21,917 bases of DNA from Parcubacteria bacterium GBS-2 (lineage in GTDB: Bacteria > Patescibacteriota > Minisyncoccia > Minisyncoccales > GBS-2): the NCBI GenBank assembly GCA_001443025.1, contig LEKP01000007.1:1-21917 (forward strand). Reading direction: 5' to 3'. The stretch's first letter is position 1, and each line of letters begins with the position of its first letter. Shown here piece by piece: positions 6,729-19,683 of the stretch. The translations under genes were made by a program, and so were the position numbers. Below the pieces are notes generated by a model that searched no databases, had not been told where the DNA came from, and saw only the letters and a list, made by a program, of their open reading frames with translations.

Positions 6729-7031
6729 TTATTTTCCAACCGCTCCAACTAAATTTGCGATTATTTCCGCAAGCGCAATGATTACAAGACCGAAAATTGC
6801 TGCATAGATTCGGTCTTTAGCGTTTGAAATTTGTGATGGATTTCCACCTGATGTCATCCATAAAAAACCTCCAATGACAATCATTAAAACCGCACCAGCA
6901 ATAGCAATATTTCTGATTAAATCACCAATTTCTTCTAAAACACCAATTCCACTTGTTGTGGTCGCTCCGCTTGCGGTAAAAGCTGAAAAAGAAAAATAAG
7001 TCAAAAAAAAGAAAAGGAAAATTTTTTTCAT
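6729..7031 (-). CDS. Small secreted two-helix membrane protein; TrbC/VirB2-like pilin candidate
   Basis: 100 aa: N-terminal signal peptide, then two hydrophobic helices separated by the TSGGNPSQISNAKDR loop. It is the last gene of the VirB4-containing operon and is related to the C-terminus of the 1375-aa protein. Confidence 0.4.
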   Translation of the reverse strand: MKKIFLFFFLTYFSFSAFTASGATTTSGIGVLEEIGDLIRNIAIAGAVLMIVIGGFLWMTSGGNPSQISNAKDRIYAAIFGLVIIALAEIIANLVGAVGK

Positions 7032-7042
7032 AAAAGTCTATA

Positions 7043-8839
7043 TTATCCTATACCTTTTTCCATTTTTATTTTCAAGATTTGTTCAGGAGAACTTGTTACT
7101 ATTTGATCTTCAGTGTACGAAGCAACAACTTTCATTAAAACATGTTTTTGACCTGCAAAAATTATTCCTTCACCAACCTCTGTTTCTAACAAAAGATATT
7201 TTTCTTCATCAGTTAAGTTGAAGGTTTTCTGGACAATATCAATAGTTGCTGGAGATTGTTTAAAAAGAACAACAATTGAAGAGTTAGTAATAATTGGCTG
7301 TCCATAGGCAGATTTCATAAAATCTCCTACATCTTGGGTAATAGTTGTGACTCCCAACCAATATTTTCTGCATCTTTTTACCATTCCGTACAAGAACGAT
7401 GCTCCATCTTCTTCTTTCATTATCCACCAAGCTTCATCAACTATTAAAATCCTCTTTTTTAATTCAGATCTTACTTTATTCCAAATGTACCTCATAATGA
7501 TAAAACTTGCGATTGGCCTCAATTCATCTTCCATATCTCTTATTCCAAAAACGACTAATGGTTTATCTAATTCTACATTGGTTCTTTGATTAAAGAATTG
7601 GGCAAAAGTTCCTTTTGTAAATCTTCTTATTCTTCTAACTAAAGACTCAGCCCCCTCCATTCCTTCTAATACTTTTTCTAAATCTTCCATAATTGGTATT
7701 CTTTCCTTCCAGAATTTTGGATTGGTGTGAGGGGTAATATCCTTCGCTGCATAAGTTTCAGTTATTGCCTTATCCATAATTGAATCTTCTTCTGGGGTTA
7801 GTCCACCGAGCATCATTCTCATTAAACCAACAAGGTTAATTACATTCGATCTTAGCACATCTCCTGGACTTTCATCTTCTCTTGGAGTTGGCAAATCAAA
7901 GGGATTAATATGGTGAGGGGACCCCAAAGAGATATTCAAAAACGATCCTCCAACTGCCTCAGCCAACATTTTGTATTCATTTTCAGGATCGATAACTATC
8001 ACATCAATTCCTTGCATTAAAGATCTCAAAATTTGTAACTTCACATAATAAGATTTTCCAGAACCTGAAGTACCAAAGACTACTTCATTTGCATTTTGCA
8101 TAGAAAACCGGTCAAAAAGAATTAAAGAATTGTTATGGCGGTTGAGTCCATACAAAATTCCTCTATTAGAACTTAGGTCTAAAGAGACAAACGGGAAGAT
8201 TGTCGAAAGAGGAGCTGTGTTCATTGGAGTTAAAACCTGAATCTGGTCTAATCCATATGGGATACTAGAATGAAATCCTTCTTTTTGCCTGAAAGTTGCA
8301 GGCTTTATATAAATAAGTTTTGATTCAAAAATAGACCTTAAAACATTTTCAATTTCTTTCAATTCTTTTTCGGAATTTCCATACACATTCAAATAGATTC
8401 CAACTTTAAACATCTTTTCTTGAGCGGTAATTAATTTATCCCTTAACTCTTCTAAATCCCTATAGGCTATTTCTAATTGCGGATCTCTAATCAATCCTTT
8501 CTCTTCTTTTTCGTGAATTTCAGCTAAAATTTCAGTTAGTCTTTTTCTAATTTGTTTTAAAATCATCTCTGAGGAAAATGGATAAATATGAATGCCGATG
8601 TCGAAAGGAACATCAAGGTTTATTATCGAAGAAAGCCAGGCGGTGCTTAAATACCTTGGATAAGAAAAGAGAAAATAAGATTTAGAAAATCTTTTCCCAA
8701 TTCTTAAAAAGTTACTCCCCAAATAAATTGAAGAAGGAGCAACTATATCCTTTGTTGTAATTTCTTCTCTCTCAAAAATCTTTTCAACTTCTATATCCTT
8801 TTTAATATCCTTTTTGGAAAACAAAAATGGAATTTTCAT
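7043..8839 (-). CDS. VirB4/TraC/CagE-family type IV secretion ATPase, central plus ATPase portion
   Basis: 598 aa. Walker A FGTSGSGKS. Walker B ILIVDEAWW, with the family-typical DEAW. Central segment YPRYLSTAWLSSIINLDVPFDIGIHIYP resembles the conserved VirB4 region of Gram-positive conjugative ATPases. Confidence 0.7.
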   Translation of the reverse strand: MKIPFLFSKKDIKKDIEVEKIFEREEITTKDIVAPSSIYLGSNFLRIGKRFSKSYFLFSYPRYLSTAWLSSIINLDVPFDIGIHIYPFSSEMILKQIRKRLTEILAEIHEKEEKGLIRDPQLEIAYRDLEELRDKLITAQEKMFKVGIYLNVYGNSEKELKEIENVLRSIFESKLIYIKPATFRQKEGFHSSIPYGLDQIQVLTPMNTAPLSTIFPFVSLDLSSNRGILYGLNRHNNSLILFDRFSMQNANEVVFGTSGSGKSYYVKLQILRSLMQGIDVIVIDPENEYKMLAEAVGGSFLNISLGSPHHINPFDLPTPREDESPGDVLRSNVINLVGLMRMMLGGLTPEEDSIMDKAITETYAAKDITPHTNPKFWKERIPIMEDLEKVLEGMEGAESLVRRIRRFTKGTFAQFFNQRTNVELDKPLVVFGIRDMEDELRPIASFIIMRYIWNKVRSELKKRILIVDEAWWIMKEEDGASFLYGMVKRCRKYWLGVTTITQDVGDFMKSAYGQPIITNSSIVVLFKQSPATIDIVQKTFNLTDEEKYLLLETEVGEGIIFAGQKHVLMKVVASYTEDQIVTSSPEQILKIKMEKGIG

Positions 8840-9453
8840 GAAATTATTTCTGGAGGAATTTCAGGATAGTAGCCGACTTCAGCTTCTTCGGGATGATAGA
8901 TTGACCAGAAAAGCTCGATTAACTCCTGAGTATTAAGAGGAGCGCAAAAAAGCCCACAATTTCGCAAACCATGAGCAACAAATTCCAATCTTTGCCAAAG
9001 TTGAGTTTTCGCTCTTTCAAACTCCTCATCGCTTAAATCTCGAGTTTTTCTTTTAGCACTCGGTATTAGTACCGGAAAGAAGGGAACCACAACGTAAAAA
9101 TTTTTATTCATAATAAAACCACTTCCAACTAAACTTTTTATAAAATCTATGTAAGATCGAGTTTGAATTTTTAAAAGTTCGTTTGGCTGTTTTCTTTCTA
9201 ATTCCTCCAACTCTTCTAAGTAACCAGTTAAGTTTAATCTTCTTGATTGAACGTAAATTTGAATTTGGAAATCTAAAGAATTTAAAAAATTTTGAAATTG
9301 ATAAATTATTGCGTTTTGTTCTTCTTCAGATTTCAAGGAAAAATTTAAAGAAGAAACAGCTAAAACTCCTCTCAATGATTTATCTTTCAAGATTAAAACT
9401 CCCTCTTTAATTTCTTCTATTTCTAAAAATTGTTGAGTAGTTAATTGTGGCAT
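8836..9453 (-). CDS. VirB4-family N-terminal domain protein, a separate ORF coupled to the ATPase ORF
   Basis: 205 aa. LAVSSLNFSLKSEEEQNAIIYQFQNFLNSLDFQIQIYVQ resembles the N-terminal region of Gram-positive VirB4-like proteins. Its TGA overlaps the next ATG as ATGA at 8836-8839. Confidence 0.5.
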   Translation of the reverse strand: MPQLTTQQFLEIEEIKEGVLILKDKSLRGVLAVSSLNFSLKSEEEQNAIIYQFQNFLNSLDFQIQIYVQSRRLNLTGYLEELEELERKQPNELLKIQTRSYIDFIKSLVGSGFIMNKNFYVVVPFFPVLIPSAKRKTRDLSDEEFERAKTQLWQRLEFVAHGLRNCGLFCAPLNTQELIELFWSIYHPEEAEVGYYPEIPPEIIS

Positions 9454-9852
9454 TTATTTTTTTGTTTCAAGATTTTCAATTAAATTTCTCAACGCTCCTT
9501 CTTTTTTAAGTTTTATTTTTTCTCCGCCCATTTTTTTTATTTCCATTTCTCCCACAAATAAAGTCTGGGTTCTTTTTTTTCCCCATAAAATTACCTTTGG
9601 CGAAAAAAGAAACTTTAGCTGTGCCAGAATATAAGCATAAAGAGGAAGCTCTTCTTTTTTCATAGCAATTAAAAATATTGCAATTACAAAACATGAAAAA
9701 GAAACTGGAAAAGCGATTGAGCGAGGAAGGGAAGTATAAAGTAAAAGACAAATCATTCCAATTGTTAAAGCATAAATTAATTGTTTAAACGTTAAAGGAC
9801 CAACAATTTTTGCCTCAGTTTCGGTAAATTGTGGAAGAGTCACCAGAGGCAT
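9454..9852 (-). CDS. PrgI/VirB3-like small membrane protein
   Basis: 132 aa. N-terminus LPQFTETEAKIVGPLTFKQLIYALTIGMICLLLY followed by a second TM helix. It sits directly upstream of the VirB4-like ORFs with no gap, as in Gram-positive T4SS operons. Confidence 0.5.
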   Translation of the reverse strand: MPLVTLPQFTETEAKIVGPLTFKQLIYALTIGMICLLLYTSLPRSIAFPVSFSCFVIAIFLIAMKKEELPLYAYILAQLKFLFSPKVILWGKKRTQTLFVGEMEIKKMGGEKIKLKKEGALRNLIENLETKK

Positions 9853-9918: not shown

Positions 9919-9947
9919 TTGACAAATTTTTTCAAATTTGATATAGT
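9919..9947 (+). promoter_or_regulatory. Sigma70-like promoter TTGACA-17 nt-TATAGT for the SPFH gene
   Basis: TTGACA 9919-9924, TATAGT 9942-9947, then AGGAGG at 9961-9966, 8 nt before ATG 9975. Confidence 0.5.
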
Positions 9948-9974
9948 TTAATTAGCTCATAGGAGGTGAAGAAA

Positions 9975-11111
9975 ATGTGGTGGATTGGGATTGGAATCTT
10001 AGTGATTGGAATACTGTTTGTTTTGTGGAAATCCTTCACAATAGTGGAAGAAGGTACAGCTAAGGCAGTGATGAAGCTAGGTAAATTCGATAAAATAATC
10101 TTTCAATGGGAAGGACATTGGATGGACAAAGACTGGAGTATTTGGTACGAGGGAGAAGAAGGGGCGCCAGATAGGAAAAAGGCCGAAAATAAAGTGTGGG
10201 GGAGAGTTTTCGGGAGTCTTTGGTTTTATGGAATTTGGCCAATTCACAGAATTTATGAATATACTCTGCGGTGGACGGACTTTCATAGAGTAATCGAAAA
10301 GGAAGGAAGCATTGAGAAAGTCCAATTTCATGAAGAAAAATTAGACCATGTACTTCTAAAGCCCGCTGTTTACTGGACAAAGATTTTTTCCGCTGAAACC
10401 ACACCTCCAGAGAGAATTCCAGTAAATATCGAAGTGTTAGTGACAATGAGAGTTTTTAATCCTTACCGCTTTCTATTCATTGCTCCACCGACGCCTATTG
10501 AAGATGTATTGGCTCGAATAGATGCTTTGATCAGAGAAAGAATCGCTCATTTGACAGTCGATAAAATTCTTCGGATAAGAACCGAAACTTTATGGGAAGG
10601 GTGGGAAACAGAAGATGAAAAAATTCCAGGATTAAAAGAGGAAAAACTAATCAAAGAAACCCTCCAGAGATGGGGAATGAAGATTGCTGAAAAAGGAGTG
10701 GATGTAAAAAAAGTTGAATTCCCCAAAGGATACGCTGAGGCTTTAGCAAGACGAAGGCAACTTGAATTAGAAGCAGAAGCAAAGAGAACAGAGTTTAGAA
10801 TATTATCAGAAGCAAGAGCAGCTGAGATTATGGGAACTATAATCGAAGCTATAGTAGTCGCTACTGGACTGCCAAAAGAGGAAATTCAAAAAGAATTTAC
10901 AAAGGATCCCGAAGCTTTTTATGAAAAACATAAGACCATTATCGATAATGTAATGACAAAGCTTTCAATGGAAGAGAGAGCATATTTGAGGATAGAAACG
11001 CCAGGGGCAACTGGAGCATTAGGAGATCTCATTAGACTTATTGGGGCCTGGCAAAGAATGCCAACAGGAAAAAAAGAAACTGAAACTACAAGAGGAGATT
11101 TGTTTTATTAG
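9975..11111 (+). CDS. SPFH/band-7 (stomatin/HflK-like) domain membrane protein
   Basis: N-terminal TM helix then FTIVEEGTAKAVMKLGKF. Later IPVNIEVLVTMRVFNPYRFLF...IEDVLARIDALIRERIAHLTVDKIL is typical SPFH core. A strong RBS favours ATG 9975 over the track's GTG 9966. Confidence 0.5.
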   Translation: MWWIGIGILVIGILFVLWKSFTIVEEGTAKAVMKLGKFDKIIFQWEGHWMDKDWSIWYEGEEGAPDRKKAENKVWGRVFGSLWFYGIWPIHRIYEYTLRWTDFHRVIEKEGSIEKVQFHEEKLDHVLLKPAVYWTKIFSAETTPPERIPVNIEVLVTMRVFNPYRFLFIAPPTPIEDVLARIDALIRERIAHLTVDKILRIRTETLWEGWETEDEKIPGLKEEKLIKETLQRWGMKIAEKGVDVKKVEFPKGYAEALARRRQLELEAEAKRTEFRILSEARAAEIMGTIIEAIVVATGLPKEEIQKEFTKDPEAFYEKHKTIIDNVMTKLSMEERAYLRIETPGATGALGDLIRLIGAWQRMPTGKKETETTRGDLFY

Positions 11112-11129: not shown

Positions 11130-11564
11130 TTATTCTATTGGCTCTCTGTAAATATCCTCTTTTGGTGGAGTTGTTGGTTTTTCTAAAATTTTCTTTTTCT
11201 CTTCTGGTGCTATTAAGAACACTCTTTCTTTAATTTCTTTTGCAATTTTTTCTGCCATAAAGAGAGATAAATTCAAATCCTTTCTTAAAAGAGAAGATAG
11301 GTCTTCAAGAGAACTTTTACCCGTTAAAATTTCTTCAAGCCTATCCATTATTTTGTTAAAAGGCAAATTCTCTATTATTTTCGTTGCTTCTTCTGGAGTT
11401 TTTGCACTCTTTAACATTTCCTCTAATTCTTGATTATCAAATAAATCGGTTGGCCCAAGGTTATATTTTTTAACTATTTCAACGATTACATCGATATCCT
11501 CAGATGAAAGAAATTTTTTTTGATTTGGATTGTATTTGATCATGCTTATAACCTTCTTTGCCAA
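11130..11564 (-). CDS. Hypothetical acidic soluble protein (144 aa) within the T4SS-like block
   Basis: Clean ORF with no TM segments. It overlaps the upstream VirB6-like gene by 19 nt. I recognise no motif. Confidence 0.4.
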   Translation of the reverse strand: MAKKVISMIKYNPNQKKFLSSEDIDVIVEIVKKYNLGPTDLFDNQELEEMLKSAKTPEEATKIIENLPFNKIMDRLEEILTGKSSLEDLSSLLRKDLNLSLFMAEKIAKEIKERVFLIAPEEKKKILEKPTTPPKEDIYREPIE

Positions 11565-13747
11565 ATAGCATCACCTATTTTTTTTATTATTTCTGCTTTA
11601 TTTACATCCAATGGATCAGATGATTCTCTTAGCGTGTCAATTGTGTTTCGAATTTTTTCATGATTTTCAGATACATCTTTTCTGAGGTTTTCTCGCGTAG
11701 AAGTTGTCAGAGTAATTCCGGTCTTTTCTGCTATTATTTTTGTATAACTTTCTACCAGGGCATCTTTTTGTTTTATAGTTCCTGCTCTTATTATTCTCTC
11801 AATGTGGGTGGGTGACATTGCCGAAACTACTTCAGGATCCATGATGGCTTTCGGTCGGATTTTTATTACATCCTTTGGAGTTATTTCATCAAGGATATCT
11901 TTTGGGGTGAAGGGTCTATTAGTTTTAGGATTAATAAATTCAGGAGCCAAGTCAACTCTTAATTTTAGAACATCATTTAGATACTTACCACCTTCTTTAG
12001 TTCTGAGGAATTTTTTAAATTCATCCTTTTCTATTAAATCATCAGAAAGTTTTCCTTCCTCAAGTAATTTCTTTGTTGCCTCTCCTTTTGCAATTTCACT
12101 TGTCCATCTTGACCTTATCATTTTTTCTAACCCTTCTTTTCCGTGTTTTTTGTAAACTTCTTCTATTTCTTCCCTAGCCCTTTTCCTTTCTAATTCTTCC
12201 ATCCTTGCCTCCATCTCTTTTTTAATTCCTTCTCTTCCTAAGACTACCATTCTCTTTGTCCAACCCACTCCTTTTTTAATGGATTCCACAGTCTCTATTC
12301 CAGGTTTAAATGGTTCAGGCATTATTTTCCCCAATTCTGGTGGAATCTCCGATAATGCCATAGATAATGCACTTCTTCCTATTCTCGGTCCTACTCTTGC
12401 CCACTCTTTTCCGAATGCTTTAACGCTAGCTCCAAAAGCACTTCTTCTGGAGACCCCCGCTAGACGAGCTGCTCCCCAGGCACGAGTAGCTGCTCCTACG
12501 CTTGCCATTGCACCTCCTAATGCAAAGGTTCCAGCAGTAATAGCGACAGTCGTTGCAAGTTTTACCATTCCAATGGCTGATTCTACAGCCTGCTTTACAA
12601 CTCCAGGAGAAGTTTTTACTCCAATGTGAATGGCAAGCGCAAAAGTTAAAGCGGGTAAAAATTTAATTAATTGTTCTGCAATGAAACCTATTTCTTGATT
12701 ACAAACATTATTGATATCCGTATCTTCCACATTACACGAGGTATTTAATTTAAAATCTAGTTCCTTTGTGATTCCTAATAATAATACTCCTACTTTCAAC
12801 CAAATCAACAAAATAACTCCAATAAAAACCCACTCTAAGAAAGTGGCCCACCACCCATCCCAATTTAAAAACCCACCAAAAATCTGTCTAATTTCTCTAG
12901 TTCGCAATCCTGCAGTTAAAAAGGCAATTGGCGAAACTATTACAAGACAAGTTAAAAAAACTAACCTTAGCACAAAGACTATCCCTAAGGCCAAAAGAAC
13001 AAAGGAAATGTAGATACTTATTAATCCTAAAATCAAGGTTGAAAGCGAAATCAGAGCAAAAATTACATTATCTTTTGTAAAAAGCGTTTGGAGATCTGTA
13101 AATGTAATAAAACGATCAAAAGTGGTTGAGAGGTGGCTTATTAGTGCATTTAAAAGAGTATCATAAATTTCAGTTAAATCTGTTCCTAAATACCCCTCCG
13201 TGCTTCCTCCAACTCCTAATGCAGTACTTATAAAATTTGTTAAAGCATTTCCCCAAGAGATTAATGTTGTTGATATGGGGAAAGAAAATGAAACTAACAG
13301 AGCTGATATTATTAACGGAACTAAAGTTTTCCGTGCGTCATATTCAAATATTCTAAAAATTGTCGCCACACCTATTAAAAGTAAAAAAATTCTTACAAAA
13401 CTCAAGGCGAAATCTTTTACAATTTCCCAAGTTCCCAGGAAACCTTTAAAAACCGTTTGGTTTAACCCCAAATCTATCAATGCATTTACAAAAGGAGGGA
13501 CAATTAAACCTCCAACGAAGATAGCGATTACACCGATAAAGAAACCTACTATAGCTAAAAAGAGAAACGGAAGCCTAAAAAGAAAAGAAATTAAATACCC
13601 AATGGGTGCGCCCAAGCCAAGTGTACTCAAGAGAGAGATGATTATTTCACCAAAATCAGAAACATTAAACGCCTTTACAACTTTGGGGAAAAGGAAAAAT
13701 ATAAAAAGAGTGAAAAAGAAGAAAAGTTGTTTAATGGTTCTTTGCAT
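11546..13747 (-). CDS. Polytopic membrane protein with Ala/Gly-rich and coiled C-terminal domain; VirB6/TrbL/TcpH-like candidate
   Basis: 733 aa. Signal-like N-terminus, at least 6 predicted TM helices in the first ~400 aa, then GTFALGGAMASVGAATRAWGAARLAGVSRRSAFGASVKAFG and a charged helical tail. Its position relative to the VirB3/VirB4-like genes follows the Gram-positive T4SS order. Confidence 0.4.
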   Translation of the reverse strand: MQRTIKQLFFFFTLFIFFLFPKVVKAFNVSDFGEIIISLLSTLGLGAPIGYLISFLFRLPFLFLAIVGFFIGVIAIFVGGLIVPPFVNALIDLGLNQTVFKGFLGTWEIVKDFALSFVRIFLLLIGVATIFRIFEYDARKTLVPLIISALLVSFSFPISTTLISWGNALTNFISTALGVGGSTEGYLGTDLTEIYDTLLNALISHLSTTFDRFITFTDLQTLFTKDNVIFALISLSTLILGLISIYISFVLLALGIVFVLRLVFLTCLVIVSPIAFLTAGLRTREIRQIFGGFLNWDGWWATFLEWVFIGVILLIWLKVGVLLLGITKELDFKLNTSCNVEDTDINNVCNQEIGFIAEQLIKFLPALTFALAIHIGVKTSPGVVKQAVESAIGMVKLATTVAITAGTFALGGAMASVGAATRAWGAARLAGVSRRSAFGASVKAFGKEWARVGPRIGRSALSMALSEIPPELGKIMPEPFKPGIETVESIKKGVGWTKRMVVLGREGIKKEMEARMEELERKRAREEIEEVYKKHGKEGLEKMIRSRWTSEIAKGEATKKLLEEGKLSDDLIEKDEFKKFLRTKEGGKYLNDVLKLRVDLAPEFINPKTNRPFTPKDILDEITPKDVIKIRPKAIMDPEVVSAMSPTHIERIIRAGTIKQKDALVESYTKIIAEKTGITLTTSTRENLRKDVSENHEKIRNTIDTLRESSDPLDVNKAEIIKKIGDAIWQRRL

Positions 13748-13760
13748 TTTTATTACTTTT

Positions 13761-16700
13761 TTACCATCCTGGTAAATTGAGAGTTTTTCCGATTAAATTA
13801 ATTATCGTCCAAGAAAAAAGCATGATCAACCAACCAATTCCTACTGCTTTCCAAATTGATTTTGCTCTTTCTATTTCTTCAGAAGATCCAAACGAAAAGT
13901 AAAATCTTATTCCAGTATACAAAAGCAAAAAGACTACAGCAATGGGAGAAAGCGTCCATAAAATACAATTTAAAATATTTGCCACGACCTTTGGAATGTC
14001 AGCAAAAGTACAATTTGAGCAATGAATGAAATTTTTGCAAGTTCCAAAACCTACTTGGGCAGATTCTCTTTTTTCGTATTTTTTAGTTACAATCTCAAAC
14101 GATGCTAAATAAGACCAAGCTCCTGCTTCTTGGCATTCTGAAGAATAATAACAATCAACACAATCTAAATAACAATTTCCATAATCTTCTTTTCCTTTAC
14201 ATTCTGTTTCACACTCTGCGGGGGGTTTGCATTCTTCTTTTCTTTTGCCACAATTTTCACCGGTACAGTATTGGATTTGGTAATAATAATTTCCAAGGCA
14301 TACATTTGTACTTATTCCCGTTTTTTCGTCTTTAATAATTTCAGTGGAGGTGGGTAAAAGAGAATTATCAAGCGTATATTTCCCATTTTCAGCCAAATCT
14401 TCCTTTGTTAGAATTTTGTCAAAGACGAGAAAAGAACTTTTCGCTTTCTCTATGCAATCTTTTCTTTTTTCAAACATTCCTCCTTTGTAAAAAATTTTTA
14501 AATGAGTACAATCTGCTCCTTTTGGAATCGGAGCCCACGAAAGAGATATTTCTTCATTAGGAAGAAATTGAACTGATCCTAAAAGTTGATTAGGAGGATC
14601 TAAATAGTAACCAAAAACAGGACCAAATTTTTCACTCCATTCTCCACACTGTAAATAAGAAGGGTCATCTTTGCTACACATATCAGCGCAAGTTTTTACT
14701 TGCCAGTAATACGGAGTATCCTCTTCTAACCAATCAACCCAAAGGTTGGATTTAAGAATAGCTACTTGAGTGAGATCTGGATGAAAAATTGTTTTAACCT
14801 CATTTTCATTTTTAAAAAATTTAATCCAATAAGAAGCTGCGCCCAAAGATGCATCCCAGTTGAAATAATGAGGAATTTTTATCTTTTTGGGCGGAGGGGG
14901 ACCTGAAATTTCTTCTTTGAAAGGAGACTGGGGAGGTTCTCCAGTGATTTTTACTTTTTGATCAACATGATCACTTAAGCAGTAAAATCCCATCTCATCT
15001 GAACAAGGGTAAAAGTAAAATGTGAATTCTTTCTTCAGTCTTGAAATTGCATCATTAAGTGGTGGAAGAGAATTCCAAAATTCCCATACTTTGAAGTTAA
15101 AAGAAGTAGATTGGGTTGAAGATTTTGGGAGATATTCCACAAAAGATTTTTCATTTTCATCTTTAATTTTTAATCTTACTGATAAAAATCTCTCAATTCG
15201 TGGAAGTTGAAGAGCCTGGGTTCTATAGATTCCGAATCTTTTGTTTTCTTTGTCAAATTCTTTTTCTGGAGCTAAATATCCCTTAACAGATTTTTTGATC
15301 ATTTTATATCCCACCGGATACTGATCTTCTCTTTCTCCAAAACAACTATCTTGCTCATAATTGCACAAGTGGGTTTTTGGAAGAGTTGTTATATAAAAAT
15401 CCCACCTTAATCCTGAACCTTTATTTGGCACTCCAACAATTACGCTATTTGGAATAAAAGAAGAAAATATTGGTGAGAATTTATCTTCTTCCCACCAGGG
15501 TTGAGGTGTCCAAGGAGTTCCAGTTTTTAAAGAAAAAGGGACCCAATAAGTTTTCTTGCTACCGTAGTCTCCGAATTCTGCGTACACATCCCTTACTACT
15601 TCTAATTCTTCAACCTTATATCTTTTAGTAGAGACTAATTTGTTGTTTTCAAATTTATCATAAAATCCTAAAGGAACAGCCCCAATACAGGTGGTGGTTT
15701 GATAAGGAGGTGAGAGGGCACATTCAAAAGAAGAGAAAGGAAAACTTGCAGAAGTATCTGTTGAAATTCTAAAAGTTGGATATTGAAAGAACTTGTCGAC
15801 GATTAAAGATGACTGGCAAGCAGAAGTTTCTGTTCCGTCTTTTTGATATTTGTAACAATTACAGGGATTCTCTTGACAAAGAGAGGTAGATGTTACGTTT
15901 TCACATTCTTGTTTGGGTTTTTCTTGAAAGAAAGATTGAAGAGGAAATGCTTGATCTTCTTTCCCTTTATAAAAAGGCGCTACAAACGAGTCAGGGTAAG
16001 AACACCATTCAACATCTACATAGTCAACTTTATATTTACACCGTTTGCATTTCTCACAAATCTCTCTTTTTCCTTGATTATTCAATTTGTGACATTCTCC
16101 ACGAAGAGCAATTAAGTCTAACTCTGGGTTTTTACCACAAAGATCTTGGCAATTATCATCAGGACCTTCATCATATTGATCAAACTCTACACCCCACATA
16201 TAAAAGGAATTGAGCCCAAATTTTTCTCTGACAACTTTACTTGGCCAGACTCTATCCCAATCAACATCAATGAAACGATAAATTTTGCCCCTTTCTTTAA
16301 TGATTTCTTTGGAATCATAAGAAGTCGTTGCAATTTCTTTTATTCTAATTCCCAAAATTGACTTTATTTCAGGGCCTAAAGTATAAAAGTTCCAATCTGT
16401 TTCATTCGGTTCTGTAGGGGCAATAGGAGAACAGTTTTCAGGATCAAGCCCACAACAAGGATAAACTTTCAAGCGATAATTTTGGAAGGGAGATATTTTA
16501 CAAGGCCCTTGAATTCCTGGTTTGGTAAGTTGAACCTCTTTTGTTAAATCGTTTTCATTTGGATCTTTATACTCTATCCAACGGTAAGTTCTTTTGCTAT
16601 CTTGGGAGGGAGAGTAGACATAGAGATAATAGTTTTTTCCTTCATGTTGAAAATATCCTGGAAAACCGTAATTACGCATTTCCCTTGGATAAAATTTTGT

Positions 16701-17888
16701 ATCGCTCAAAAAATAATAATCAAAGTAATCATACATATCTTTTCTTGAGAAAGAAGAGTATAAAGGTTTTTGCCACTCTGGGAGACTCTTTCCTTCCGCA
16801 ACATACAAATGTCTAGTGAGATAGTCTGCTCCGTTTTTCTCAATTTTGAAATAAAAAGACCCCACCCCTAACCCTCTAATCAAAGAATACGTGTTATCAT
16901 CAGTTTCAAATTCAAATAATTTAAACCTTCTATCAAATTCCTTTTCCCCTAAAACTTTTTCTTTTAAGATTTTTTTAGCTTTTTTCTCATCGAGTTGAGA
17001 ACAGTAAGTACAATCTCCACCTCTTCCTTCTTTACAATTTTTACATTCTTCCTTTGCCTTTTCTATTGCCTCTTCCCATTCATCTATTCCTGTCTTTTCT
17101 TTTTTAAATTCCCAACCAAACTTAGCTGGCAATCTTAAAGCAGAGGGATTTTGTTCTTCGTTCTCTATCCTTCCTTCCCATTCTCTTTTTGGATTTATTG
17201 AACCACCGAAATAATGAGGATATTTCACCGGATCTAAACATTTCCCCCAACAAGTTACTTGTACGATGTCAAAGAAACGAGAGTCTCTGTACACGTGCCA
17301 ACAATCTTCTCCGCAATCTTCACTTCTAACTTGTCGAGAAGTATAGGCATAAAAATCGCCATATTCATCATCATCATCAAAAATCGGAGGGAACCAAACT
17401 ACTTCATCCACCTCAGGGCAGTCCCCTTCAGTACATTTAATTTTTGAATACGGATAATTTAAACTCCCCCCTGCTTTTTTAATTCTCTCTTTCTCTGTAG
17501 AGGTCAATTTGTCATACCTGTAAGTGCAAACTAACCAAGGAGTTTGGGAAGTATCGAAATTTTTTTTTGTTGGAGAAGAAGAGGACCAACTTCCACAACT
17601 CCACTCAGTACACCCTACACCACAAGTACAGCAACTGCGGGAACAACTTCTCGTTACCTCTCTTTCTAAAATTGTAATTACTCCACCACAAGCTCCTAAT
17701 GTGCACTTGTGTTGGATTACTGTTTGTTTTTCTGTTTCTGTCCAGCACACAACTGTACATCCTCCATTTCCTTCACCTCCATCACCTCCATCACCTCCTC
17801 CACCACCGTTTTCAGCAAAAACAAAGTGAGAATTGAGTAGGAATAGTGCAAAAGTGAAAAACAGTATTAGAAAAATTCTATTTTTCAT
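13761..17888 (-). CDS. Giant secreted cysteine-rich protein (1375 aa) with C-terminal pilin-like two-helix membrane domain
   Basis: Signal peptide MKNRIFLILFFTFALFLLNSHFVFA. Poly-Gly/Asp linker. About 60 Cys by manual count. The C-terminal ~75 aa form two hydrophobic helices around GSSEEIERAK and are similar to the 6729-7031 protein. Its start overlaps the rsmA stop. Confidence 0.75.
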   Translation of the reverse strand: MKNRIFLILFFTFALFLLNSHFVFAENGGGGGDGGDGGEGNGGCTVVCWTETEKQTVIQHKCTLGACGGVITILEREVTRSCSRSCCTCGVGCTEWSCGSWSSSSPTKKNFDTSQTPWLVCTYRYDKLTSTEKERIKKAGGSLNYPYSKIKCTEGDCPEVDEVVWFPPIFDDDDEYGDFYAYTSRQVRSEDCGEDCWHVYRDSRFFDIVQVTCWGKCLDPVKYPHYFGGSINPKREWEGRIENEEQNPSALRLPAKFGWEFKKEKTGIDEWEEAIEKAKEECKNCKEGRGGDCTYCSQLDEKKAKKILKEKVLGEKEFDRRFKLFEFETDDNTYSLIRGLGVGSFYFKIEKNGADYLTRHLYVAEGKSLPEWQKPLYSSFSRKDMYDYFDYYFLSDTKFYPREMRNYGFPGYFQHEGKNYYLYVYSPSQDSKRTYRWIEYKDPNENDLTKEVQLTKPGIQGPCKISPFQNYRLKVYPCCGLDPENCSPIAPTEPNETDWNFYTLGPEIKSILGIRIKEIATTSYDSKEIIKERGKIYRFIDVDWDRVWPSKVVREKFGLNSFYMWGVEFDQYDEGPDDNCQDLCGKNPELDLIALRGECHKLNNQGKREICEKCKRCKYKVDYVDVEWCSYPDSFVAPFYKGKEDQAFPLQSFFQEKPKQECENVTSTSLCQENPCNCYKYQKDGTETSACQSSLIVDKFFQYPTFRISTDTSASFPFSSFECALSPPYQTTTCIGAVPLGFYDKFENNKLVSTKRYKVEELEVVRDVYAEFGDYGSKKTYWVPFSLKTGTPWTPQPWWEEDKFSPIFSSFIPNSVIVGVPNKGSGLRWDFYITTLPKTHLCNYEQDSCFGEREDQYPVGYKMIKKSVKGYLAPEKEFDKENKRFGIYRTQALQLPRIERFLSVRLKIKDENEKSFVEYLPKSSTQSTSFNFKVWEFWNSLPPLNDAISRLKKEFTFYFYPCSDEMGFYCLSDHVDQKVKITGEPPQSPFKEEISGPPPPKKIKIPHYFNWDASLGAASYWIKFFKNENEVKTIFHPDLTQVAILKSNLWVDWLEEDTPYYWQVKTCADMCSKDDPSYLQCGEWSEKFGPVFGYYLDPPNQLLGSVQFLPNEEISLSWAPIPKGADCTHLKIFYKGGMFEKRKDCIEKAKSSFLVFDKILTKEDLAENGKYTLDNSLLPTSTEIIKDEKTGISTNVCLGNYYYQIQYCTGENCGKRKEECKPPAECETECKGKEDYGNCYLDCVDCYYSSECQEAGAWSYLASFEIVTKKYEKRESAQVGFGTCKNFIHCSNCTFADIPKVVANILNCILWTLSPIAVVFLLLYTGIRFYFSFGSSEEIERAKSIWKAVGIGWLIMLFSWTIINLIGKTLNLPGW

Positions 17889-18732: not shown

Positions 18733-19683
18733 ATGAGTAAAAAGAAAACCTTTTTGATTTTGATAGCCTTTTTCTTATTTTTACCTCTAATTTTTAGTTT
18801 AAGGAAAAAAGAAGTTAAAACAGAAAAGGAAGTTTACGTTGCTCCGCCCTTTGCTTCTTCGAAAACCTGGCAGAACCTTCCAGATTTTATTTTTATTGGG
18901 AACAATTTCTTAAAGTTTTCTCTACCACCCGCCTTTGTGAATGGAAAAACGTTGGCAGCGATTGTTGAGGATTCTGAACAGAGAAAAGAAATTCAAGAAT
19001 ATATTGTCGAAGATGGAGATACCCTTTCTTCAATTTCTCAAAAGTTCAAAATTTCAATTGAAACAATTGCATGGGCAAACAATCTTAGCAAAAGATCAAC
19101 TCTTAAGCCCGGCCAAAAGCTAATAATTTTGCCAGTCGATGGAATTTTGCACGAAGTCAAAGCAGGAGATACCATTTCTGAAATTGCAAAGAAATATCAA
19201 GCAAAGATTGAAGATATTATTTCTTTTAATGAGCTTGAAAGTCCAGATGATATTTATATTGGCGATATTTTAATCATTCCTGGTGGGAAAATGCCATCTC
19301 CAAAACCTACTCCGCAACCTTTGACTCCCCTAGCCCAGGGCTATTTCATTTGTCCAGTTGCTGGAGGTTGCAGAATTACTCAGGGGCTTCATTGGTACAA
19401 TGCAGTCGATTTTTCAAACGGAAAATGTGGAGAAGCAATTTTGGCAGCTGCAGGAGGAACTGTTTTGAAAGCAGGATGGAATAGGACAGCAGGAAACTAC
19501 ATTAAAATTTTGCATCCAAACGGAATAGTCACAATGTATGGTCATTTGCAAGCAATCTTTGTTTCTCCTGGAGAGAAAGTTTCTCAAGGGCAAATTATTG
19601 GAACAATGGGGGCAACTGGCAGGGCAACAGGTTGCCATTTACACTTTGACGTTTTCGGAGCAAAAAATCCTTTTGCTAAATAG
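18733..19683 (+). CDS. LysM-LysM-M23 family peptidoglycan endopeptidase
   Basis: N-terminal anchor or signal. Two LysM repeats (YIVEDGDTLSSISQKF..., HEVKAGDTISEIAKKY...). M23 core with HxxxD and HLH motifs (HWYNAVDF...GCHLHFDVF). Confidence 0.85.
   Translation: MSKKKTFLILIAFFLFLPLIFSLRKKEVKTEKEVYVAPPFASSKTWQNLPDFIFIGNNFLKFSLPPAFVNGKTLAAIVEDSEQRKEIQEYIVEDGDTLSSISQKFKISIETIAWANNLSKRSTLKPGQKLIILPVDGILHEVKAGDTISEIAKKYQAKIEDIISFNELESPDDIYIGDILIIPGGKMPSPKPTPQPLTPLAQGYFICPVAGGCRITQGLHWYNAVDFSNGKCGEAILAAAGGTVLKAGWNRTAGNYIKILHPNGIVTMYGHLQAIFVSPGEKVSQGQIIGTMGATGRATGCHLHFDVFGAKNPFAK

Follow-up and report, generated by a model that had tools for sequence, protein, structure and literature searches.

We analysed a window of 21,917 nucleotides (nt) from Parcubacteria bacterium GBS-2 (contig LEKP01000007.1, positions 1 to 21,917), in which a type IV secretion system (T4SS) gene block begins with an open reading frame (ORF) for a Cys-rich protein of 1,375 amino acids (aa), hereafter named the giant protein. 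Profile comparisons confirmed that the C-terminal hairpin of this protein is homologous to the stand-alone small pilin encoded by the last gene of the same block. The original prediction, made from the letters of the window, had proposed this paralogy and, on top of it, a pilin-adhesin function. Both ORFs that it named are present: the giant protein, with 62 Cys, is encoded at 13761-17888 on the minus strand and the small pilin, of 100 aa, at 6729-7031 on the same strand, both inside a cluster that also encodes VirB4 and the VirB3-like protein PrgI. What we did not find described before is the class of pilin fusions to which the giant protein belongs; the T4SS cluster and its VirB2-like pilins were already known.

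Homology of the C-terminal hairpin to the small pilin

The Pfam family T4SS_pilin (PF18895) matches the small pilin over residues 31-95 (E 1.4e-13, 51.1 bits) and the giant protein over residues 1301-1366 (E 3.7e-6, 27.3 bits). Both matches span profile positions 8-71 of 71, and that of the giant protein lies above the curated cut-off of 26.6 bits. Hydropathy and this full-hairpin coverage agree with the proposal that the two domains are hydrophobic helix-loop-helix hairpins; in the giant protein, a predicted export signal precedes a pair of long hydrophobic helices with a short polar loop between them. In addition, VirB4, TrsD and PrgI are encoded on the same strand within 10 kb, and this synteny is kept in three related contigs (L001, L003 and L004). 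PF18895 had already been assigned to the family of the giant protein in the precomputed annotation of a public protein collection.

Comparison in hhalign of 11 C-termini from the giant family (alignment A3) with 14 relatives of the small pilin (alignment A2) gave a probability of 96.9% and an E value of 1.3e-10 over 73 columns, in the register of the ungapped alignment first noticed after a shared AK motif. That alignment is indeed present between the two proteins, with 8 of its 24 residues identical, including the terminal NL[IV]G. A hidden Markov model (HMM) of the small-pilin family scored the giant C-terminus at 41.6 bits, a value reached by none of 3,000 shuffles (mean 0.6, sd 1.5, maximum 16.2) that were confined within helix 1, loop and helix 2 and kept the composition of each segment. 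The similarity is thus well above that of shuffled hydrophobic helices, the outcome that would have spoken for chance. The reverse HMM test was marginal (11.0 bits, equalled by one shuffle in 3,000), and pairwise BLASTP of the two proteins was not significant (E 2.9) and ran in a different register. Because of this BLASTP result, the pair alone would not prove homology, and it is the profile methods that settle it. The two hairpins are 25% identical, which points to an ancient paralogy rather than to a recent duplication.

With respect to other pilin families, the small pilin matches PF04956 (VirB2/TrbC) at 25.6 bits (E 1.5e-5), below the cut-off of 27.9, and the giant protein has no PF04956 match at E <= 1. 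The NCBIfam model “pilin-like conjugal transfer protein”, from integrative and conjugative elements (ICEs) of Mycoplasma, matches the small pilin weakly. A holin or another non-pilin family, considered as an alternative identity for the small protein, was set aside, as it found no match in Pfam, NCBIfam or PHROGs. A sequence search of the PDB with the pilin profile returned no PF18895 structure.

Architecture of the giant protein

From N- to C-terminus, the giant protein is organised as follows.

17814-17888, minus strand: signal-peptide-like N-terminus, residues 1-25, MKNRIFLILFFTFALFLLNSHFVFA, recognised from a hydropathy peak at residues 5-23 and from the sequence; the cleavage site is inferred
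15039-17813, minus strand: distal Cys-rich ectodomain (residues 26-950), which evolves faster than any other part (pairwise identity in the family 48-60%)
14244-15038, minus strand: membrane-proximal beta-sandwich modules resembling fibronectin type III (FnIII), residues ~951-1215
14007-14243, minus strand: juxtamembrane module (residues 1216-1294), partly helical and rich in Cys, of which Cys 1284, 1290 and 1293 are conserved
13782-14006, minus strand: T4SS_pilin (PF18895) helix-loop-helix hairpin, residues 1295-1369, with hydrophobic cores at 1305-1323 and 1345-1363
13761-13781, minus strand: conserved short tail KTLNLPGW at the C-terminus, then the stop codon, 13 nt ahead of the next ORF

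The pilin-like domain had been placed in the last ~40 residues. It is in fact ~75 aa long and comprises both helices (residues ~1295-1369); the range first given for it, 13761-14000, covers the hairpin with the exception of its first two or so residues. Hydropathy peaks are found at residues 5-23, 1305-1323 and 1345-1363, that is, exactly two hydrophobic helices besides the signal-like segment. Given this signal-like N-terminus and just two hydrophobic helices at the C-terminal end, the intervening ~1,270 residues should be extracellular, in agreement with the external location predicted for the fused ectodomain.

Structure models were built from P0001, a database representative reported to be 100% identical to the giant protein. 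P0001 differs from the protein of the window at at least one residue (ERIEKAGG, against ERIKKAGG in the window). In the AlphaFold2 (AF2) model, the hairpin helices extend over residues 1295-1331 and 1336-1369, with predicted local distance difference test (pLDDT) values of 54-66. The model of residues 26-705 was unusable (pLDDT 39.6) and residues 696-~990 had pLDDT values below 50. The distal ~900 residues have no Pfam match, no PDB sequence match and no recognisable fold. FnIII-like modules form a stalk in the membrane-proximal part of the ectodomain, an element typical of adhesins and receptors that counts in favour of an adhesin.

Three contigs identical to the window over the small pilin (L004, L006 and L007) come from Great Boiling Spring samples at 77 °C (JGI GBSCECS77c, GBSSSed77C and GBSCSSed77C), so that the organism is probably a thermophilic Patescibacterium. 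The 62 Cys may provide disulfide stabilisation, tied to this thermophily.

Conservation of the giant family

Among 5.8 billion clusters, the giant family has 18 matches, 15 of them full-length, with sizes of 1,345-1,741 aa and a shared C-terminus. A word-indexed homologue search with the 96-aa giant C-terminus gave six contig-end fragments only, and a profile search of GTDB species-representative contigs with the giant-family alignment gave no relatives. On contigs of 310-350 kb, the gene order is rsmA, giant, polytopic membrane protein, 136-aa protein, (SPFH), PrgI, TrsD, VirB4, small pilin, jag, yidC, rnpA, dnaA. In Paceibacteria, the T4SS block conserves the giant gene as its first member.

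No region of the giant protein is better conserved than the hairpin, whose mean pairwise identity is 78% as compared to 48-62% for the ectodomain regions. In the same genome pairs, identity amounts to 85-87% for VirB4, 74% for the giant hairpin, 62-67% for the small-pilin domain and 45-59% for the whole giant protein; the giant ectodomain diverges much faster than VirB4. Within the hairpin, W1346 and K1347 are invariant and the loop is conserved. Since the hairpin is more conserved than both the ectodomain and the small-pilin domain, it is likely to be engaged in specific protein contacts rather than in mere hydrophobic anchoring; a mere membrane anchor is not expected to be the slowest-evolving part of the protein.

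One member of the family, P0015 (1,741 aa), carries a Peptidase_M23 domain directly after the signal peptide (E 1.1e-24). Its HxxxD (HIGID) and HxH (HLH) motifs are intact, and this peptidoglycan hydrolase is apparently active. P0015 was found in two independent samples, in the same rsmA context as the giant protein (L089:1705-6930 and L090:481-5706). Its position right behind the signal peptide would place the hydrolase domain at the distal tip, farthest from the membrane hairpin.

Pilin-domain fusions in related VirB4 loci

All ORFs of 80 VirB4 loci from GTDB species representatives (Paceibacteria) were scanned with the pilin-domain HMM. The loci were picked by similarity to the VirB4 of the window, ORFs were called mechanically and the counts leave out the window's own lineage; the survey describes this lineage rather than all Patescibacteria. 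It yielded 91 pilin-domain ORFs: 12 stand-alone pilins (<=200 aa), 15 with a C-terminal hairpin, 61 with an N-terminal hairpin and 3 others. Fusions outnumber free pilins by ~6 to 1, and the 15 ORFs of the C-terminal class are the giant-like fusions near VirB4 for which the original prediction had proposed to search.

In the C-terminal class, the hairpin follows a long ectodomain (242-948 aa in total) and the gene lies upstream of VirB4, as does the giant gene. With phmmer, the giant protein matches members of this class over residues ~950-1140, corresponding to the FnIII-like modules, and over residues 1244-1368, corresponding to the Cys-rich module and the hairpin (E 1e-9 to 1e-26). These matches identify the giant protein as an enlarged orthologue of a conserved cluster component. 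It does not stand alone: fusions of its class are common in Paceibacteria T4SS loci, and the giant protein is an enlarged representative. Hairpins of the C-terminal class are 42% identical to each other and 22-23% identical to those of the other classes, and the nearest neighbour lies inside the class for 16 of 18 of them. By this measure, they form, together with the giant hairpin, a distinct conserved subfamily, with the consensus NIlDF.LW...TG..YFS.G......KSiWKaaGIGY...lSW.IiNL. Every C-terminal-class locus with intact flanks contains a second pilin-domain gene, and a homologue of the 733-aa polytopic protein is encoded directly after the fusion gene in 9 of 20 loci.

The N-terminal class, the commonest (61/91), consists of a signal peptide and hairpin followed by a long hydrophilic tail of up to 1,708 aa. 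The tail has no further hydrophobic segments, and two or three such genes often stand in a row near VirB4; examples among loci L013-L086 are L016:12374-14857, L074:11846-16972 and L062:84-3224. Pfam analysis of ten sampled fusion proteins identified PF18895 in seven, four of these above the cut-off. Other domains found above the cut-off were a Rha78A-like Ig domain in two of five sampled C-terminal-class proteins and the beta-sandwich lamin-tail domain LTD in one sampled N-terminal-class protein.

A further architecture was observed outside the window. Poly-pilins (P0040, P0043 and P0052) have one signal peptide and 2-17 tandem PF18895 hairpins joined by short linkers, without internal signal peptides; one example has 8 copies in 820 aa, another 4 in 386 aa. 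A pilin-domain profile search of the representative library gave 110 cluster representatives at E <= 1e-30 and 83,670 at E <= 1e-3. The best 150 matches were dominated by multi-copy poly-pilins and gave no usable length distribution.

The T4SS gene block near the replication origin

The window (GC content ~32%) belongs to the replication-origin region and carries a penicillin-binding protein (PBP) gene, dnaN, dnaA, rnpA, yidC and jag. On the minus strand, from 17888 to 6729, the T4SS block encodes the giant protein, the polytopic protein, a 144-aa protein, PrgI, a TrsD/TraC-like protein, VirB4 and the small pilin. These genes and their neighbours are the following.

18733-19683, plus strand: LysM-LysM-M23 peptidase, 316 aa, divergent neighbour; domains from Pfam matches of the syntenic genes in L001 and L003
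17878-18702, minus strand: rsmA/ksgA, directly upstream of the giant gene and overlapping its start codon
13761-17888, minus strand: giant ORF, which opens the T4SS block, 1,375 aa with 62 Cys; 15 full-length homologues with matching architecture
11546-13747, minus strand: membrane protein of 733 aa, polytopic (~8 hydrophobic segments), whose position alone makes it a candidate analogue of VirB6/PrgH
11130-11564, minus strand: soluble protein of 144 aa (136 aa in L001 and L003), function not assigned, kept in the cluster
9966-11111, plus strand: SPFH/Band-7 gene, on the opposite strand, splitting the T4SS block
9454-9852, minus strand: PrgI/VirB3-like protein, 132 aa (PF12666, E 5.3e-8)
8836-9453, minus strand: TrsD/TraC-like protein, 205 aa, equivalent to the N-terminal part of VirB4 (library matches; PMC12102498)
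7043-8839, minus strand: VirB4-type ATPase, 598 aa (NF045971, E 7e-116; PF19044)
6729-7031, minus strand: small pilin, stand-alone, closing the block; 100 aa with a signal peptide and a PF18895 hairpin (residues ~26-98, nt 6738-6956)

Gene content and order (VirB4, TrsD and PrgI near dnaA, dnaN, rnpA and ksgA, and no gene for a relaxase or coupling protein among them) are those of the MPF-FATA-like T4SS cluster of Patescibacteria, which was described near dnaA/dnaN/rnpA/ksgA with neither relaxase nor coupling protein in the cluster (Quinonero-Coronel 2025, PMC12102498). On these grounds, the locus of the window is this known cluster adjoining dnaA. VirB4 is split into the 205-aa TrsD/TraC-like N-terminal protein and the 598-aa ATPase, with overlapping stop and start codons, an arrangement reported to be typical of Patescibacteria (PMC12102498). 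The nearest relatives of VirB4 among GTDB species representatives are Paceibacteria/Parcubacteria metagenome-assembled genomes (Paceibacter normanii, Nealsonbacteria, Wildermuthbacteria), as judged from sequence similarity. The 733-aa polytopic protein has no Pfam match. In Paceibacteria, virB4 is reported to be associated with VirB1 homologues that contain M23 and LysM domains (PMC12102498), and the LysM-LysM-M23 peptidase is a candidate for such a VirB1-like hydrolase acting on the wall.

The ATG codon of the giant gene overlaps the stop codon region of rsmA/ksgA by 11 nt (17878-17888), and a gap of 13 nt (13748-13760) separates the giant stop codon from the polytopic gene; the genes corresponding to this second pair overlap in L001 and L003. 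This overlap and this short gap suggest that the giant gene is co-transcribed and translationally coupled with the origin-adjacent housekeeping gene rsmA/ksgA. A promoter and terminator scan of the block, in which sites were no commoner than in shuffles, was uninformative on operon structure. The SPFH gene has the sole near-consensus sigma-70-like site of the region (9919-9947, TTGACA-17-TATAGT with an upstream TG); the gene is found in L003 and L004 and is absent from L001. In L004, the giant protein is called at 1,034-1,040 aa and dnaA is in two pieces, which looks like assembly frameshifts.

Relation to known systems

VirB2-like pilins and a possible pilus have been published for the monoderm, dnaA-adjacent T4SSs of Patescibacteria (Wang 2023, PMC10633639; Quinonero-Coronel 2025, PMC12102498; FEMS review 2025, PMC12857230). 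The statement that the architecture is not described for monoderm T4SSs therefore does not extend to the pilins; it stands for large ectodomain-pilin fusions, of which we found no description in the literature searched on PF18895/T4SS_pilin and Patescibacteria T4SSs. In the 2025 survey, all PF18895 hits are listed as “VirB2” and no adhesins were detected (PMC12102498). Pilins have been reported for Patescibacteria T4SSs, but no VirB5, adhesin or coupling protein. T4SS genes, including pilins, are essential for the epibiotic growth of S. epibionticum, the one system tested. A metatranscriptome study of other Patescibacteria placed genes with T4SS-pilin domains among the genes of unassigned function with the highest expression, and termed them adhesion-related (PMC10936435).

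Close counterparts are the VirB2-like pilins of Patescibacteria T4SSs, for instance SEML1_0014-0019 of S. epibionticum and the “Sec-secreted array” of TM7x, which share with the giant locus PF18895, the VirB4/TrsD/PrgI cluster near dnaA, a monoderm cell and the combination of signal peptide and hairpin. However, these pilins are small and arranged in tandem arrays (the domain ends by residue 99-185; SEML1_0019 has 417 nt, ~138 aa), whereas the giant protein carries its hairpin at the end of a Cys-rich chain of 1,375 aa, and this hairpin falls into a separate subfamily. The VirB2/TrbC/TraA pilins of diderm bacteria share the helix-loop-helix after a signal peptide, and the small pilin matches PF04956 weakly. 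Unlike those systems, that of the window has no outer membrane, no VirB7/9/10 and no VirB5, and the giant protein lacks a PF04956 match. To our knowledge, no VirB2-type pilin with a large ectodomain is known.

Solved structures of F-type pili show the two termini of the pilin on the exterior and the loop between its helices lining the lumen (PMC5018250). Terminal fusions are thus topologically possible in VirB2-type pili. Pili grow from the base, and a VirB5 pentamer docks on VirB6 and ends at the tip (PMC12857230). The giant protein can be likened to VirB5/TraC in its proposed role only and in the position of its gene, directly before the polytopic gene in VirB6 position. VirB5, which is small, soluble and helical, lacks a pilin hairpin; no similarity of the giant protein to VirB5/TraC in sequence or fold was found, and Pfam gave no match. 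Adhesins of the PrgB type from Gram-positive T4SSs are also large secreted surface proteins encoded in a monoderm T4SS cluster, with a potential for cell-cell contact. They are anchored by an LPXTG sorting signal, unlike the giant protein, whose C-terminus, ...INLIGKTLNLPGW, has no LPXTG motif and is anchored by the pilin hairpin. No PrgB-related family was found in Pfam and NCBIfam scans of the window proteins, and the giant protein has no homology to PrgB; PrgB-like adhesins have not been found in Patescibacteria (PMC12102498).

Finally, among type IV pili, CofB and TcpB are large minor pilins that prime assembly, combine a pilin module with a large extra domain and occur once per filament, at the tip. 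The parallel with the giant protein is an analogy only: pilin fold and assembly machine are unrelated, and the pilin module is N-terminal in CofB and TcpB.

Possible roles of the giant protein

Tentatively, and with slightly less than even confidence, we propose that the giant protein is a disulfide-rich protein exported through Sec to the cell surface, where its VirB2-type hairpin ties it to the T4SS, and that it would act as a minor or first-in (tip) subunit on a pilus-like structure and contact the host envelope. After export and cleavage of the signal peptide, the hairpin would adopt the position of a VirB2-type pilin in the cytoplasmic membrane, its two ends external and its loop on the inner side. 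The machine made of VirB4, PrgI and the polytopic protein would handle this hairpin along with the small pilin. As the termini of VirB2-type pilins lie on the filament's outer side, the ~1,270-aa ectodomain would project outward. At 1,375 aa, the giant protein could hardly be a regular repeating subunit of the filament, and the bulk of its ectodomain would restrict it to a minor, first-in (tip) or sparse one. It would be the functional analogue of the VirB5 tip protein or adhesin absent from these systems, in contact with the host cell envelope, and the adjacency of the fusion gene and the polytopic gene would echo the VirB5-VirB6 pairing. Overall, the minor or tip pilin-adhesin role put forward in the original prediction is plausible and topologically consistent.

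Several observations weigh against this proposal. The PF18895 score of the giant protein (27.3 bits) barely exceeds the cut-off (26.6), the small pilin matches TrbC/VirB2 only below the Pfam cut-off and the giant protein not at all; no PF18895 structure was found in the PDB, so that the assignment to the structural class of VirB2 is profile-based. The confidence of the AF2 hairpin is only moderate (pLDDT 54-66). The giant hairpin subfamily has diverged (25% identity) and may not co-polymerise with the small pilin; it could play a different part at the machine. Short members of the C-terminal class, of 152 and 242 aa, have almost no ectodomain. Neither a fold nor a binding domain can be recognised in the distal ectodomain, so that “adhesin” is a guess from the architecture, and incorporation in a filament, tip position and adhesin function are all inferred.

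The hairpin might instead be a membrane anchor and nothing else, the giant protein being a stationary surface, wall-spanning or S-layer-like protein outside any filament, encoded in the T4SS block for co-expression or by loose association. C-terminal hydrophobic anchors do hold many surface proteins, the ectodomain is far too big for a regular filament subunit, and the hairpin subfamily shares no more than 22-25% identity with the small and N-terminal classes. A plain anchor, however, should keep its hydrophobicity and not its sequence, whereas this hairpin shows 78% identity, the invariant W1346 and K1347 and a conserved loop. Moreover, it is a bona fide PF18895 domain, its position in a VirB4 block is kept across many species, and a two-helix hairpin is unusual as a simple anchor. 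We consider this alternative unlikely, yet of appreciable weight.

The giant protein could also be a component of the secretion channel, that is, a stalk or nucleator that spans the wall and remains at the machine, for instance docked on the polytopic VirB6-like protein, with host recognition left to others such as type IV pili. The tight adjacency and probable translational coupling with the polytopic gene (a 13-nt gap in the window, overlaps in L001 and L003) and the rank of the giant gene as conserved first gene of the block fit such a role, as do the short members that keep the hairpin and dispense with the ectodomain; the M23 domain of P0015 could cut the cell's own wall, like VirB1. On the other hand, the polytopic gene is next door in only 9 of 20 loci, and the ectodomain varies in sequence and size (hairpin-bearing proteins range from 152 to 1,741 aa). 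This variability is better accounted for by an interaction surface under diversifying pressure than by a fixed structural part. We consider a channel component improbable. A chance similarity of hydrophobic helices, or an assembly or gene-calling artefact that fused a pilin gene to an upstream gene, is very nearly excluded: against the non-significant BLASTP of the pair and the marginal reverse HMM test (11.0 bits, 1/3,000) stand the hhalign E value of 1.3e-10, the 41.6 bits compared with a shuffle maximum of 16.2, the Pfam profile spanning both hairpins, 15 full-length homologues from different samples that carry the hairpin in one uninterrupted ORF, and the same architecture in 15 further GTDB genomes. 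The homologues and the conserved synteny rule out the fusion artefact.

Going beyond the tip pilin-adhesin proposal, the hairpin may be a general display module of Paceibacteria T4SSs. The machine would extract hairpin proteins from the membrane and build a short filament bearing fast-evolving host-binding or wall-cutting ectodomains on its subunits or tip, and the C-terminal subfamily would be the tip, nucleator and adhesin that replaces VirB5 and sets host range. We put forward this wider scheme as doubtful. If true, it would describe a conjugative-pilus-derived adhesive organelle of a type not known in other bacteria.

Implications for Patescibacteria

The occurrence of free pilins next to fusions of both orientations means that surveys scoring every PF18895 hit as a “VirB2 pilin” conflate at least three architectures. 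The part of the Patescibacteria T4SS that contacts the host has concrete candidates in the fusions of pilin hairpins with large, fast-evolving ectodomains, and in P0015 the ectodomain is tipped by a peptidoglycan hydrolase domain. The giant protein of this ultrasmall hot-spring bacterium thus yields a testable prediction on filament composition and on host-range determinants in a large uncultured bacterial group.

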